This document shows, piece by piece, positions 42,182 through 55,900 of a DNA stretch of 64,000 nucleotides. The notes beneath the pieces were generated by a model, which was not told where the DNA came from, did no database searches, and saw nothing but the letters and a program-made list of their open reading frames with translations. A program made the position numbers and the translations under genes. Where the stretch lies: assembly GCA_965112155.1 (NCBI GenBank), contig OZ218102.1; one strand, given 5' to 3'. The first letter of the stretch is position 1. Each line of letters starts with the position of its first letter. The stretch is from Podarcis liolepis (lineage: Eukaryota).

Positions 42182-43959
42182 TTTATTTATATCCCGCCCT
42201 CCCCAACCGAGCCGGGCTCAGGGCGGCTAACAACAGTCAAATAACAATCAAATAATAACACATTCTAAAAATATTTCATTATAAAAATTAGTTAAAATCA
42301 AATTGATGGCAACCGATTAAACAAAATTCTGTGCAGGTTGCCAGAGGAGGGAGTCAGGCTGCGCCCTGACCAAAAGCTTGGCGGAACAACTCTGTCTTGC
42401 AGGCCCTGCGGAAAGATGTCAGATCCCGCAGGGCCCTAGTCTCTTGTGACAGAGCATTCCACCAGGTTGGAGCTGCAGCCGAGAAGGCCCTGGCTCTAGT
42501 TGAGGCCAGCCTAACCTCTCTAAGGCCTGGGACCTTGAGGGTGTTATTATTTGTAGACCGTAGGTTTCTCTGTGGGGCATACCAGGAGAGGCGGTCCCGT
42601 AGGTACGAGGGTCCTAGGCCGTATAGGGCTTTAAAGGTTAAAACCAGCAACTTAAACCTGATCCTGTACTCCACCGGGAGCCAGTGCAGCTGGTATAGCA
42701 CCGGATGAATGTGATCCCGCAGCGAAGACCCCGTAAGGAGTCTCGCTGCGGCATTCTGCACCCGCTGGAGTTTCTGGGTCAGTCTCAAGGGCAGCCCCAC
42801 GTAAAGCGAGTTACAATAATCCAGTCTGGAGGTGACCGTCGCATGGATCACAGTGGCTAGGTCAGGGCGAGAGAGATAAGGGGCCAACTGCTTAGCTTGG
42901 CGGAGATGGAAAAATGCCGCCTTTGTTATAGCTGTAATCTGCGCCTCCATAGAAAGGGAGGTATCGAAGATTACACCCAAACTCTTAACGGACGGTGCTG
43001 GCACTAATTGCACCCCCGCAAGAGATGGGAGTTGCCCCCTCGATCCCATATCGTCCCGCCCCAGCCAGAGGACCTCTGTCTTCGAAGGATTTAACTTCAA
43101 CCGGCTCCCACGTAACCATCCAGCCACAGCTTCCAGACATCTGGTCAGTGTGTCTGGGGCCGAGTTAGGATGGCCATCCATCAACAGATAGAGTTGGGTG
43201 TCATCAGCATACTGATGGCAACCCAGCCCAAAACTCCGGACAAGCTGGGCGAGGGGGCGCATAAAGATGTTAAAAAGCATCGGGGAGAGAATCGCACCCT
43301 GAGGCACTCCACACACCAAGGAGTGACGCGATGACAATTCCCCCCCAAGCGCCACCCTCTGTCCCCGATCAGAGAGAAACGAGCGCAGCCATTGAAGGAC
43401 TGTGCCCTGGATCCCCACGTCGGCAAGGCGGTGGTCCAGGAGTTCGTGATCCACCATGTCAAAGGCTGCTGACAGATCTAGAAGAATCAGCAGCCCCGAC
43501 CCGCCTCGATCCAGCTGCCTACGGAGATCATCTGTTAGGGCGACCAGAGCCGTCTCGGTCCCATGACCAGCACGGAAGCCAGACTGGAATGGATCCAAAG
43601 CAGATGTTTCATCCAGAAACCTACCAAGCTGTTCAGCAACCGCTCTCTCAATCACCTTACCCAGGAATGGAAGATTCGAGACCGGGCGGTAATTGGATAG
43701 ATCTAAGGGATCTAACGATGTTTTCTTTAAGAGCGGACGCACCACCGCCTCCTTCAGTTCCCCTGGGAATATCCCGGTGCCAAGGGACAAATTGATGATA
43801 TCCCCCAGGGGGGCCCGCACCTCGTCTGGACACGCTCTAATCAGCCATGACGGGCACGGGTCAAGAGGACAGGTGGTGGGCTTTCCAGCTTGGAGGAATC
43901 TGTCCACATCGGCTGGAGATATCCGGTCAAAGTGGTCCAATTTAAAGGCAGAATGCTTA
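42140..43959 (-). mobile_element. Young 5'-truncated L2 LINE with an intact reverse-transcriptase-to-C-terminus reading frame
   Basis: Uninterrupted 528-codon ORF 42354-43940 with RT motifs (NYRPVSNLPF, QSGFR, LLDLSAAFD, GVPQGAILSP, YADD) and the L2 C-terminus (LHWLPV, RAFS.AAP.WWN). It has an (ATT)n tail and a 13-bp TSD GAGAATATTTATT (42127-42139, 43960-43972). Confidence 0.95.
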
Positions 43960-44811
43960 GAGAATATTTATTATAGAAAGTAAAACATTAAGTAAGCAAC
44001 ATCAACAAGAACCATTCTTTGGTTCAACTAAACCAGCCAATTGAACTTCCTTTCTTATACTAAAGACCTGTACATATGGGCATTGCGACCCTTGCCCGGC
44101 TAATTCAAAAGTGGAATCCCCTAAACTCACAACAGTATGCTTTCACCTTCATAAGTCAATAGTTCTTCCTCATAGTGGCAAGTGAGTCACAGCATTTGCA
44201 AACAGTGAAAACATCACATGGCAAGCACATTTCTGAGAAAGTTTAACATGCCACCTCAAAGCAGCAGCAACTTCCTGTCAAGCTATCTAAAGTCACTCGG
44301 TCACCTAGCAGGAAAACCTAAACTTTGCTGTTCTCAGGCATCATTCCCATGCTTTGTTCTGAGCTGGCTTTGTTTTCGTATCTTGCTTTAACATGCGTTG
44401 TTTCTCTTGTCCCTGCAAAGGCTTTCAAAGTAACCATACTTCATCAGAAAGCTGAGACTAGGATAGGATTCGTATGAGAGTGTGCCATTCTGCTGAGGTT
44501 TACTCAGAGCAGAGCCACTGAAATTAAAGGACATGATTAAGTTCGATCCATTGATTTGAATGGGTTTACTCTGGATAGCATCTTTATGTACTTAAGATTA
44601 ATGGGTAGGGGGATAGTATATGCAAGAAAAATCCAATTGATTTCAATTATATTAATTCACTAAGACCTAAAACATCATAGTGCTTAAGTGTGAGAGGAAG
44701 CAAGTGCCTTTTCCAAATCTGGCCTCAGGCATAAATATCACCACTAGGTGATAATAATACTGTACTATCATGTGGAATTGTGGTAATTAATACTAAGGTA
44801 ATGTATATAAT

Positions 44812-49847: not shown

Positions 49848-50624
49848 TACCTCAGTGAAGAGATGTTTGAGCTGCCACCAAAACTCATGCCAGCCACATT
49901 TCTGATGGGAGGGTATTCCACAGCTGGCACCTCAGAAAAGGTCCTACAGCACACCAGCACCCAATGTACCACAGGTACTAGCCAGAGCTTCAGAAGACCT
50001 TTCCCTGCAGATCTCCAGTCTTGGATAGATAGGTGTAGGGTGTGTTATAGGAGAGGGGTAATCCATGTGGGTCCCTTCAGATGTTGCTGGACTACAGTTC
50101 TTGTGATTCCTGATCTTTGGCCATGTTGACCACAGCTGGTGAAGGCTGTGGTTGATTGCTTGGAGGGCAGTACACTGGCTAACCCAGTAATAGGTATACA
50201 GTATACTATACCTATATAGGTTAATTTTGATATGCTACTGGTTTCCTTCCCGCTCCCTCTTTTCTTATCATTATAAGGAGGGGGGGCAAATTGGCAGCAA
50301 AGACTGGGGAAATTGTCCATCTTATGCTATGGTTGCAAGTCTGCAGTGGGCATACATAGTGCTGATATCTTTTTATGGAAACACTGCACACTGTGATATG
50401 GAAATGTATGAATCATTGCAGTTAGCAACCACAGGAATTTAGGGTGAGTTGTTTTTTTTTAACCATTTGTCTATGCTGAGTTCACGGCAGATTCCCTTCT
50501 TTTGAAATTTGATGGTTAGGAATGCGTGGAAATGGGGTAGGGAGGTGGATGAGTAGTAGAGGGCTTGTGGCAGTAGAAGAGTAGCACCTGGCTGGGTGTT
50601 TCTGAGCCTAGAAACTCTTTATGC

Positions 50625-50948
50625 CATGGGTAGGCAAACTAAGGCCCGGGAGCCAGATCCGGCCAAATCGCCTTCTGAATCCGGCCTGTGGATGGTCCAG
50701 GAATCAGCGTGTTTTTACATAAGTAGAATGTGCGCTTTTATTTAAAACACATCTCTGGGTTATTTGTGGGGCCTGCCAGGTGTTTTTACATGAGTAGAAT
50801 GTGTGCTTTTATTTAAAATGCACCTCTGAGTTATTTGTGGGGCATAGGAATTTATTCATATTTTTTTTCAAAATACAGTCTGCCCCCCCTCCCCAAGGTC
50901 TGAGGGACAGTGGACTGGCCCCATGTTGAAAAAGTTTGCTGACCCCTG
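50625..50948. mobile_element. hAT-Charlie MITE resembling OposCharlie1 (OC1) non-autonomous elements
   Basis: CATGGGTAGGCAAACT...AGTTTGCTGACCCCTG termini, a GGTCTGAGGGACAGTGGACTGGCCCC subterminal block and an internal ~71-bp tandem duplication. Confidence 0.75.
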
Positions 50949-51119
50949 CAGTTTTATGCGGGTGTGTACTTAAGAGTTCTCTCAGAGAGCTCAGAAAGAC
51001 TGAAATATATGATTCAAGAAGGGGGATTTCACCCTCACTAGAGCTAAATATTTCCAGCCCTTGACTGAAGGCTGGTTCACACACTGACCCAGTTGAGGAG
51101 CATGCATATACTGTTTCTC

Positions 51120-52976
51120 TCTCTTTTTTTTTTTTCAAGATCAGTGTTGAATTTCTTTTTTTTAAAAAAAAAATTTTATTGGGTTTTCCACTTTTATAAC
51201 AACAAAACACACACACACACACAAAAATGACACATAACAAAACATGTATAAATTCAGCCAATCCTCGTTTCATGACCTTGTTCCCTGACTTCCCCCCACC
51301 CCCCCTCGTGCATCCCAATTCCCAAGATTATATCAACAAATTGGTATTTCTCCTCTTAACCATCTTGTTCTTCTTATTACCTCTTTTGTAATTAAAATTG
51401 ATATTCCTAAGTTGGACTTAAGTTCTCTTCCATCGATTTTTCATTTTGTCTTAATTAAAAATCATATTAACCAAACCTAAAAATCTTAAGAGTTTCTAAA
51501 AGTCTCCTCTTCCCTCCCTCCCATCCCCGGTTTTTGTCCCTTCCCGATGAAAGTCCAAAGTCGAGATTCTCAGCCTGGGTTCCTCACGTCCGAGGCTTTC
51601 AAGTCCCTTTCAGTCCCTCTCCGCCGTTCTTGTTGGTAGCCCTTTATATCAGTCGTCGAGTCTGGAAAAGACATCCAAATATATTCTCTTCCCACAAGGA
51701 GATTTGTAATCAATTGCTGGAAAATTTCCACCAAGCCTGTATCCTCAGAACCAAAGTCCAAACAAAGGCCCCAATCATGCCTCTTTATTTTAAATTCCTG
51801 TATTCCATATTGTCCCAGGGCCTCTTCCTTCTTCTTCTGCATCTTTCGCAGACTTGTGGTAGATGTGTTCCCAAGATCTCCTTGCTTGTATTCCACAGAT
51901 GTCAGCTTTTGGATGTTGCTTCCCAAAGTTACTTTCTCTTTTTCTTGTTTAGTCTCTTCCACCTCTGAAAGTATTGTTTCCTCTTCAGCTGTGGATTCTT
52001 TCTCATTCAAGTCCTCAACACAAACAGCAGAGTTGCCTGTTCCCAAGGTCATAGTCACAAGTTGTTTATTCATAGCCAAACTCTGCTCTTGTAAGGTTCC
52101 CACCAACTGAAACATCCTTTCAATTTCAGCTAGTAACTTTCCATCCACAGCCATTGTATCCATTGTAGTTTCACAGAATTCCCCCTAGGGGGAATCTGGT
52201 TACTTATTAATCTTTTACTCAACAACCCTTTAACTTCTTATTGTTACTTTGTTTCCAACAATTTTGATTCAATTGTGTCTTAGTCCAGGGGGATCTTAAA
52301 CAACAATTTTTCCGCTTTAAATTGCCCGTTTGTCAGCTTTGACAGCTGTCAAACTCCGCGGCTCTAACACAAGCACTAAGGCAGGACGTTCCCGAGCCCG
52401 GGAGGGGGGGTAGTTTAAAACAAAAAGAAGGCTTCTGAAACTCCACTCTCCAGCATAAAATTTCCCTTAGCGAAATCTTGAAAGTTAATGTCCTTTTTAA
52501 CTCACCCCACCAAGGGCAGGCTCTCCAGCTTAGCTCTTATGTCGTTGCTTAGATCTTCTGCAAGGGGGGGGTGCGGACTTCCTTTTAGCACACCCCCCGG
52601 TCGTCTCTAATTCAGGGTAGAAATTTTTAAAGTCCCAATCCGTCTTACTCACGGGTAGTTCTTTCAGTCCAGATTTTCAAGGAAGGAAGTTGGCGCTCTC
52701 TGGTTATGGCTCGCGGCTTCGCTCCACCGAGGTAGCGATCGACTCTCAGTGCCACGCCACCCCCGTATCCCCTCCGCAGCCTTTAAAAAGGCTCTTCGCG
52801 AATCAGGGGGGGCGCTTAAGGCACCCGCCGAGTCTTCAGTCCGCAGGCATCCGCGCCTGCGGTTTTTAAGGGTCCCCGCGTCGCCGGCGCGGCTAAGACC
52901 CATCCTCGGTAGAGCCGATTCCCTCCGGAGCTCGGAGGGAATCCGCCATTTCCAGATCGCGTCAACCCGGAAGTCC
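51120..52976 (-). mobile_element. Full-length non-autonomous L1-dependent retroelement (HAL1-like) with a single ORF
   Basis: 17-bp TSD TGCATATACTGTTTCTC (51103-51119, 52977-52993). The 5' end reads GGACTTCCGG...AAATGGCGG and leads into a CpG-rich 5'UTR. AATAAA (51175-51180) is followed by poly(A). No EN or RT is encoded. Confidence 0.85.
51570..52163 (-). CDS. 197-aa orphan ORF of the HAL1-like element (N-terminal heptad pattern, acidic middle)
   Basis: Intact ATG-to-TGA ORF positioned between the element's 5'UTR and 3'UTR. LLAEIERMFQLVGTLQEQSLAMNKQL suggests a coiled coil. No L1 ORF1p RRM motif (RRxNLRIxG) is recognised. Confidence 0.6.
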   Translation of the reverse strand: MDTMAVDGKLLAEIERMFQLVGTLQEQSLAMNKQLVTMTLGTGNSAVCVEDLNEKESTAEEETILSEVEETKQEKEKVTLGSNIQKLTSVEYKQGDLGNTSTTSLRKMQKKKEEALGQYGIQEFKIKRHDWGLCLDFGSEDTGLVEIFQQLITNLLVGREYIWMSFPDSTTDIKGYQQERRRGTERDLKASDVRNPG

Positions 52977-55900
52977 TGCATATACTGTTTCTCACCATGT
53001 GTACAATCTAATCTGAGGCATGGGAATGACACACATAGAATTAGGATAACAAGAATCTGGCCTACAGGTAAATATGCATGCATTTACCATTTTAGTCATT
53101 AAATATCTTGTATGCACATATTCCCAGCATTTCTTTCTAAGGCTCTTCACATCTCCTCCTTGATTAGACCTTCTGTTAAATGCCCCCTTATTTGCATTCT
53201 ATTATTTCCCTTCCTAAGTTGGCTGCTGAGCACATCATCACCATCTGAATACATATCTGCCATTCAAATATTGCAGTCTAATTATACAAAGAGCAACCCA
53301 GGTAGCAAACATATTGACTGCACCCTTACCTTGGGTTGTGTAGCAGTGCCCACAAAGTGACACAGAGCTCTTGCAAGATCTCACGGAAGCCACCGCCGCT
53401 TCTCTGCCCCCAGTGGAGGCAGCAGGGTGGGCTGCCCAAGGTGGCTGCCTCAGTCTGCCTCACAGGTGGGCCAACCCTGACTATTTCAGACTCCAGTTGG
53501 GGATTTGCATGATTCAATAAATCAAATGTTTATTATGGTACATCAACCATCAAACAAAGTTCAAAATACAAGAAATACAAAACCATACCCTCAGAAGAAC
53601 TAATTAGGAATTACTGACAAGTCTGAGAGATATTACAATGTTCAGATATATTGCCACCTGTAGCAAATTTAATAGTCCTCCTTTTGTAAGACTGACTCAG
53701 CTCAATTGATCTTTCATGATAATCAGTCCATTTCCTCCCCTGCAACTGCAAGCTATTTGCCAATTGCTTATTTCAGCTCTTCCACTTCAAACTTGCTACT
53801 TTGCCACAGCAGGACAACAAATTTTGAAAAGCTAAAGCTAATTTGCTGTTTGTTTTTTTTGAAGTTTGCAAACCTTTTGAAATGCTTGCTATTCAACATG
53901 ATTCATAGAGCAAATGATTTCTCCCCCCCTTTTTTGTTACTTTAAAACTTTGTCCCTTCTTTAAAAATTACAACAGCTTATAGTAGCACACCTAAATTAA
54001 GGGGTGTGTGTGTTAACTTGGAATCTGCAAGAATTCAAGGGTCAGTTTATTAGTCATCTACCCACCTGTCCAAGCTTGGATGCAGTTTTCTTTGATTCTT
54101 TCCTCCTTTTCCATTTCATTTTGGTTCTCTCTTTTTCTGCTACTTCTTTTCTCCTTTCTCCCATCTCCGTTATGCTTTATTCCTTTGGCTGGACTTTCTT
54201 GCTCTTTTTCTACCTCCTCCTCTTTCGAGGAACAAATTCATCTCTGGTGTCAAGCTAGTTGGACAGAGCTGCAGGAATAAACTGCCCCTTTGTCTTGGTC
54301 TCTCCTAGAGGGCGAGTCCAGCAGCCAGGGAATTTGCAAGCAACACATTCTTGCCTCTGCCCTTTTCTGGTTGCCTCCTAATCCACCGTACCAGTAGCTA
54401 TGAGATATATCTATATGTTGGTGGCTGAGCCTATTGAATGATAACACAAATCTTAAGAAGTGAGCCTCTTCACAACATTTCTCCAGGGAGAGAAATTATC
54501 TTACAGTAAGATAGATCAGTTTAACAAGATGAGATTTACCGAAGATTGAATATTCAGCAGAATTTTTGGAAGTTTTTGTTCAGATTACCCTGTAGAGTAT
54601 TACCAGTTTCTTTTCTCTCTAAAACCCATCTGCATTATTTAAAGTGACGGCTAACAGATGGCACCTCTATTGCTTCATGGGGTTACCTTTTCAAAACCCG
54701 CTTCTTCCATGAAGCCTTTGGCACAGCGCACTAGTTCCCATGCCCAGTAGAACACAGCCTGAAACTTAGGCTAAGGATGTGTGACTGAAACTAATGTATA
54801 TTGCTTCCCTGTTTAGCCCTGCCTCTACTTCCCTTCCCTTTCTCTATTTCCCCCATGTTGAATTTTATATTGAAAAGCCATTGGCCAGTAGCCTGTTCTC
54901 TTGTATTCTGTAAAGTGCCATGTACAGTGATGGAACTATGTAGGTAACAACAGCAAGAACAAACAACAACAACAACAACAACAACACTTGTAGGAACCTG
55001 ATATAGCCAGATCCTACTTAACATACATGTACCATAACTGGCTGGATCCACAGACCTCCTGTGGACAGATCAGGAGGAGAAAGTAGAGGAGAGAAAGTCA
55101 CTAAAGTTGGCTGAGTAGCTCTTGCAAATCTGCTATCTGTTCACGTTTTAATCCTGGCTCTTCAGGGGACACAACGTATATTCCAATTCCACTAGAGAAG
55201 AGTGCTTCTTGGATTTTCTGCCAATTCCCTACCACTTAACCTAGCGGTTATAATATCCTGGGTCTAGTCAAATCCAAAGCTCTGACTCTAAAGTGGGGTG
55301 TACCATTCCGTACAAATAAAATAATAATTGCTCCCATTAAACAGCACAGAATGTAGGTTGCACACCATTTACTCAAGGGAATCTCACTAGAGATAACAGG
55401 ACAACTACAGTGAAAGTGGACTGCAACCATAAGCTTCAGACCATTTGGTCTTTCTCTGTCTCTCCCCCCCCCCACAAAATTTGTGTTAGAATAATGCTGA
55501 ACCATTGCTTCTCCTAACCACATCCTGTGGCAATGCCGCAGTGTCTAATTACTCACAGAGTGAAATTAAACATGGGTTTCAACTTTCTTTGTCCATTTTG
55601 AAATTTCCTAGCAGATAACTCTACATCAGCAGCTGTATTCATTAGGAAGAGAATGCAGAGGCTTACTGAAACAAATGCAGGGAGCAATCTACCAAGCACT
55701 GCTGCAGCACAATCTTCACTTCAGTGGGGCTTCTGTACCAAAATGAATGATGAGTGAAGGCTACACAGAAATGGTGCTGGGTGAAATGAACTAAGCACAA
55801 ATGACTGCTTTGTTTCCTGCTATGAAGAGAACAAATGGAAAGCACTGTGGCACCTTGGGAGTCTGACAGTGGCATCCTATGCTTTACACAGTAGCAAGTT

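Follow-up and report, generated by a model that had tools for sequence, protein, structure and literature searches.

Why should a retroelement that carries no enzyme keep a protein of its own, and which parts of that protein are worth keeping? This question is raised by an element in a 64,000-nucleotide (nt) stretch of the lizard Podarcis liolepis (contig OZ218102.1 of assembly GCA_965112155.1; hereafter the window). The element is 1857 nt long, lies on the minus strand (52976-51120), as do all its features given below, and encodes a single protein of 197 amino acids (aa). Our analyses identified it, almost certainly, as a HAL1 (half-L1), with purifying selection on two short segments of its protein. 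That it is a recent half-L1 with an eroded ORF1, selected at both ends, whose protein serves as a cis tether for borrowing the L1 enzyme, is a reading to which we give slightly less than an even chance.

Origin of the element from L1

The element begins with GGACTTCCGGG (52976-52966), followed by AAATGGCGG at 52951-52943, motifs that are ETS-like and YY1-like. The head motif gave 2771 genomic matches versus 8 for the reversed control. Forty matches, hand-picked to span the head types, were then classified: 14 were L1s in which ORF1 was followed by a whole or broken ORF2 (seven with target-site duplications, TSDs, and about 6 kb long), 19 were short elements of 1.0-2.5 kb (TSD in 18 of 19) and 7 were other sequence. 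The CpG-rich head of the window element (nt 2-334; 52643-52975), a putative internal promoter, was ~73% identical to the 5′ ends of the 6-kb L1s of the genome, namely L154 (ORF1 of 345 aa, ORF2 of 1243 aa) and its kin. Similarly, the distal 3′ untranslated region (UTR; nt 1598-1825, 51152-51379) shared ~70% identity with the corresponding end of the intact L154, in keeping with the kinship to autonomous L1s suspected in an earlier, sequence-only reading of this DNA. Intact L1s with like ends carry TSDs of 14-21 nt; the window copy is flanked by duplications identical at 17/17 positions (5′ copy 52977-52993, 3′ copy 51103-51119). Contigs from two of four relatives' DNA runs (X17 and X18; organisms B and D) joined the flanks with one TSD copy, while those from the remaining two (X14 and X16) broke at the insertion site. 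Because two relatives' contigs join the flanks in this way, we consider the insertion real and recent.

Inside the element, an 813-nt 5′UTR with four upstream ATGs (52164-52976) precedes the open reading frame (ORF; 51570-52163), AATAAA lies at 51180-51175, 389 nt past the stop codon, and none of the element's open reading frames corresponds to an endonuclease or reverse transcriptase. The sequence-only reading had recognised the perfect duplication, the sizes of the three parts (~810 nt, 197 aa and ~390 nt) and the missing enzymes correctly. Its claim that the 5′UTR retains CpGs holds for the first 400 nt (observed/expected, o/e, 1.1), the remainder giving 0.5, and its AATAAA stands, while its poly(A) is refined to two short A-tracts (51120-51163) on either side of about 20 extra nt (51137-51156). 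These 20 nt have only one further genomic occurrence (G000:C1:116256324-116256343, L219), after an A-rich tract and with no element there. A short 3′ transduction, whose source copy is missing in the assembly, is the likely cause, template switching being the alternative.

The window copy belongs to a large family. The 40 matches listed by DNA search showed 93-100% identity, 39 of them near full length; direct repeats flanked 29 of the 30 copies examined and the full ORF was kept in 26. Exact 5′ heads of the window lineage numbered 286 in the genome (control, 0). The first 40 of 100 listed head matches, picked by the head alone, were used for a test of the frame. TSDs of 12-22 nt (mean 17.4) with an A-rich start were present in 36, the RNPG-stop was reached in 38 (once via an in-frame 99-nt deletion), and the two exceptions were one frameshifted and one internally deleted copy; the median terminal branch was 0.6%. 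A tree of 89 copies was ladder-like with the window copy as a young tip. Unlike a one-off deletion, the element has thus been amplified as a unit (286 heads; TSDs in 36/40), and the idea of a young, multi-copy, L1-mobilised, HAL1-like family whose ORF stays open was borne out by the empty site, the heads, the flanking repeats and the intact frames. Protein searches revealed further lineages, at 45-80% protein identity, whose elements have this layout too and measure 1.8-1.95 kb.

The descent of the protein was traced by profile comparison among non-overlapping sets, no sequence being common to two of them. The probabilities were 100% from A2 to A6, 99.6% from A6 to A4 and 99.4% from A4 to L1 ORF1, across the full length. 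In the order given by the alignments, the N-terminal domain was lost, the RRM core was deleted, being already gone in the A4 intermediates, and the C-terminal domain (CTD) was then eroded. The junction could be placed in the DNA of L169, L137 and L157, where, at the stop, an L144-type ORF1 tail passes into the last part of ORF2; sister elements retain only ~100-150 nt of the ORF2 end. The protein, which had been taken for an orphan and possibly novel, descends from L1 ORF1p and is an eroded form of it. A processed pseudogene of a host gene was considered and rejected, since the homologues were unnamed or hypothetical proteins and element copies, and L1 ancestry was shown; the only named protein homologues were hypothetical proteins of Podarcis lilfordi. 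Comparison with intact L1s showed the element to be, as judged by its shared ends, an L1 derivative that arose by internal deletion. Altogether, the L1 ends, a single ORF homologous to ORF1 via the intermediates, no ORF2 and amplification as a unit leave little doubt about its identity as a HAL1.

Several copies departed from this layout. In the L119-L121/L130 lineage of the window family, the first 445 nt were 87% identical to an L148-type L1, which suggests that a newer L1 promoter may have been captured. L157 carries a second 3′-end-like segment upstream of the ORF (~nt 790-1015), perhaps a nested insertion in the 5′UTR, and L095 (G000:C37) comprises three copies inside 10 kb that seem to stem from a segmental duplication in tandem. 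In the TSD-flanked L164 (1016 nt) and L201 (425 nt), all or most of the ORF is missing; they are single deletions or small non-coding subfamilies, and would bear on the need for the ORF. Three other short elements with different junctions (L165, L171 and L172; 2.2-2.4 kb) also kept the ORF1 coiled coil, fused in frame to mid-ORF2 or C-terminal ORF2 pieces, and apparently had separate origins. L138, L139 and L160-L162 belong to another repeat, the head of which, GACTTCCGG...AAAATGGCG, is shorter and for which a TSD was not found. Many of the 150 listed L1 ORF1 matches sit on contig G000:C20, presumably a W-like or other repeat-rich chromosome.

Selection along the open reading frame

The conserved start codon across the family is that of the second methionine (MAVDG, 52154), from which residues are counted here. 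The ratio of nonsynonymous to synonymous change (dN/dS) was obtained from parsimony counts on internal branches, at kappa 4.5 unless stated, in two sets: 89 copies with an open frame, chosen beforehand through a pattern anchored at residues 1-6 and at 191-194, and 38 copies, the head-picked 40 minus the two without the frame. The N-terminal heptad helix (residues 1-35, 52050-52154), which aligns with the first part of the coiled coil of ORF1p and shows a 3-4 pattern at positions 11, 14, 18, 21, 25, 28, 32 and 35, had a dN/dS of 0.25 in the 89 copies, and 0.46 over residues 7-35 in the 38. The middle (residues 36-168; 51651-52049), which contains the remains of the coiled coil, RRM and CTD, is in frame but evolves near-neutrally (0.84, p 0.08, and 0.81, p 0.11, respectively) and has no confident fold. 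In contrast, the last 18 residues (177-194) gave 0.07 (p 2e-7) and 0.17 (p 3e-4). Synonymous change (dS) in the tail was 1.10 compared with 1.28 overall in the 89 copies, and 0.79 compared with 0.78 in the middle in the 38. Shared indels were multiples of three in 4/4 cases within the ORF and in 3/46 in the UTRs, where many involved a single base. These estimates from aligned copies show purifying selection acting on the N-terminal helix and on the last 18 residues.

The conserved C-terminal peptide, RRRGTERDLKASDVRNPG plus stop (51570-51626), derives from the ORF1 tail and has the consensus L-x-A-S-D-x-R-x-P-G-stop. A DNA pattern for its end matched 1587 genomic sites (control, 0), and the tail pattern was present in 19 of 21 representatives. 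Leu-10, absent from the search pattern, was invariant in the 19 tails with two codons in use; Arg-4 varied only synonymously, though it had belonged to the pattern. R-4, P-2 and G-1 were fixed while position -3 varied (N/S/L; in sister lineages N is replaced by S, L or D). The position of the stop was fixed as well, with each of the three stop codons in use. In L1s this tail is ALDRRSPD or ASDRRSPN, and it differs among L1 families. Its conversion into (K/R)ASDxRxPG-stop took place where the deletion joined ORF1 to ORF2, as sister elements show for the Gly-stop.

Structural modelling agreed with the loss of domains. For the 197-aa protein only helix 3-40 was confident (predicted template modelling score, pTM, 0.22), and Foldseek found no fold match with this low-confidence model; a helix at 168-191 in the tail had a predicted local distance difference test score (pLDDT) near 50. 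The ORF1p of L154, in contrast, was modelled with its full fold despite a shallower alignment and matched human ORF1p (E 1.7e-9). The window protein thus falls short of the canonical ORF1p fold (coiled coil, RRM and CTD), and the loss of a recognisable RRM and CTD noted in the sequence-only reading is real. That reading also had the N-terminal heptad pattern right; the W/L-rich segment that it stressed lies in the least constrained part, and it missed the last 18 residues, the most constrained. Pfam gave only sub-threshold chance matches for the ORF and 28 family members, a result that is uninformative because four genuine ORF1p of the genome also had no ORF1 family match. A PF02994 profile search of the genome itself returned no match and is likewise uninformative, the control sequences being equally unmatched, and PF13966 returned two old L1 fragments. 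An ESM Atlas search with the protein yielded no usable match, and the best hit of a PDB sequence search had an E of 0.55.

The element, though not its unique flanks, was covered by RNA reads of a related organism, most of them 88-95% identical. In run X24, most first mates mapped to the + strand across a large part of the ORF and of the proximal 5′UTR, while a neighbouring repeat was balanced. If the library was stranded, these reads would weakly indicate sense transcription of related copies, in another species and from other copies. Just left of the element, positions 50620-50948 hold a short repeat of very high copy number, within which 64 nt are duplicated. Elsewhere in the window, an open 537-aa frame (42354-43967, minus strand) resembles the reverse transcriptase of long interspersed nuclear elements, and is presumably L2-like.

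Candidate roles of the protein

With its RRM core deleted and its CTD eroded, the protein is unlikely to act as a normal nucleic-acid chaperone. Arrest peptides are about as long as the conserved tail and end at Pro/Gly. Since the helix is conserved, the middle is near-neutral but in frame and the C-terminus is fixed, the simplest reading is a tether. ORF2p would be supplied in trans by 6-kb L1s such as L153-155; the helix would dock on the helper ORF1p or the L1 particle, the middle would be a spacer, and the tail would slow termination, so that the nascent chain stays on its own ribosome and RNA until ORF2p takes that RNA. The benefit should fall on the encoding RNA, because copies with a broken frame would otherwise spread equally, and we regard action of the protein ends in cis as probable. 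The tether-and-pause mechanism itself is put forward tentatively, with the balance leaning somewhat against it. In its fullest form the proposal is doubtful: ORF1p, an RNA chaperone, would have been reduced to the least that a cis tether needs, namely a helix for docking, a spacer that can be dispensed with, and a newly evolved tail at which termination stalls and which acts as a degron after release. Heterotrimers of different L1 coiled coils do form on co-expression (PMC10588031).

A number of observations weigh against the tether. The same work doubts joint assembly of nascent chains on different mRNAs (PMC10588031), and the sequence of the helix is now far removed from that of the coiled coils in present-day L1s. 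The ancestry from ORF1p runs through stepping-stone intermediates, a direct profile match between the family and L1 ORF1 being weak (13.9%), and in the window copy the ORF2 remnant past the stop scores at shuffle level. Two features of the dN/dS analysis, its parsimony basis and the pre-selection of the 89 copies, lower the confidence in its ratios. Under kappa 2 the middle of the 38 copies shows mild constraint (0.67, p 0.002), so that it may be more than a spacer. Finally, the codons GCC TCG of the tail are near-fixed at the DNA level (18/19), a constancy for which a model based on the peptide alone has no account.

This last point leads to the view that the tail is kept mainly as RNA, as a short hairpin just before the stop. 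A consensus fold of 13 representatives contained a stem in which GCCU-CGGA pairs with CC(A/G)GG(C/U) just 5′ of the stop; GCC TCG derives from an ancestral GCA TTG and was retained despite its CpG, and the last 87 nt of the ORF retain CpGs in general (o/e 0.83 versus 0.1). However, folding z-scores over the 13 windows ranged from -0.72 to +1.51, none stable, dN is lowered in the tail while dS is not, the stem does not reach Leu-10 and leaves Arg-4 in its loop, and a hairpin leaves the helix and the open frame unexplained, which makes it very unlikely. The peptide could instead be a C-degron by which CRL2 ligases destroy the released protein, preventing it from poisoning the helper or aiding other copies; in a variant, the tail recruits the ligase to the partner bound by the helix. 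The terminal R-x-P-G-COOH fits the Trp/Ala/Pro-Gly consensus of KLHDC10 (PMC11568203) and the R-x-x-G motif of APPBP2, which can occupy the extreme end (PMC10614623), and the fixed R-4, P-2, G-1 and stop position, with -3 free to vary, would agree with it. Such a pattern match is qualified by the many consensus ends that are not real substrates (PMC11568203); moreover, conservation extends to Leu-10 and further, beyond what a degron needs, and a benefit after release is common to all copies and harder to select. We consider this explanation unlikely, although it is compatible with pausing and the two are not mutually exclusive.

A minimal adaptor or chaperone, with the helix trimerising with itself or with ORF1p and a basic tail helix gripping RNA after release, would suit the Arg-rich tail, modelled as a helix, and the thought that HAL1 proteins multimerise with those of the helper (PMC5786205). 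The tail model is of low confidence, however, and the Arg cluster varies among lineages (L/Q/K), in contrast to the invariant A-S and P-G, which carry no charge, and to the fixed position of the stop, so that such a role seems quite unlikely. That the ORF is neutral, and open merely because the copies are young, is largely refuted. The short terminal branches would lead one to expect intact frames in single copies and the middle does evolve near-neutrally, but lineages at 45-60% protein identity all retain the frame and the tail, no shared indel breaks the frame and the dN/dS of the tail is far below one.

Comparison with known systems

HAL1 (half-L1) elements were reportedly described in mammals by Smit in 1999 and by Bao and Jurka in 2010. 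HAL1 and the idea that its protein multimerises with that of a helper, which the sequence-only reading also put forward, are already in print (PMC5753468, PMC5786205, PMC3627910), and the reasons offered for keeping ORF1 are such multimerisation or a need for ORF1p in cis. No description of a reptile HAL1 was found in the literature searched, Repbase and Dfam lying outside that scope, and one may still have been published. What appears new here is that the RNA-binding domains were erased while activity continued, and that a conserved tail was born at a junction, with a series of intermediates coexisting. Having shed these domains while staying active, with selection on two short segments, the family indicates which parts are important and reduces the question to an 18-residue peptide and a 35-residue helix in a genome that also holds young intact helper L1s. 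The stepwise passage from ORF1p to a seemingly orphan protein also accounts for 'hypothetical' lizard genes. If the tether is true, it would be a protein-based counterpart of the ribosome docking of Alu, and the natural deletions of the family would chart the requirements for a parasite to overcome L1 cis-preference.

Other systems share part of these features. HeT-A and Ag-Sponge also have one ORF1-type protein, proposed to multimerise with that of the helper, but belong to the Jockey and CR1 clades and not to L1 (PMC5786205). The 2A/StopGo peptide, D(V/I)ExNPG-P, occurs in some elements without long terminal repeats, and the window lineage likewise ends in NPG; it was rejected as a candidate, as the lizard tail lacks the Glu, a stop replaces the Pro after Gly, and N becomes S/L/D in sister lineages. 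The CRL2 C-degrons (KLHDC10 Pro-Gly, APPBP2 R-x-x-G) share the terminal pattern but were defined in human cells, and the conserved lizard stretch is longer. The closest likeness is to mammalian HAL1, which is also an L1 internal deletion with ORF1 only, L1 ends, TSD and poly(A), multiple copies and maintained coding capacity (PMC5753468, PMC5786205, PMC3627910). The lizard family differs in its host and perhaps in its deleted RRM core and eroded CTD; in selection on two short ends, one of them a motif made at a junction; and in the graded intermediates that coexist in a single lizard genome.

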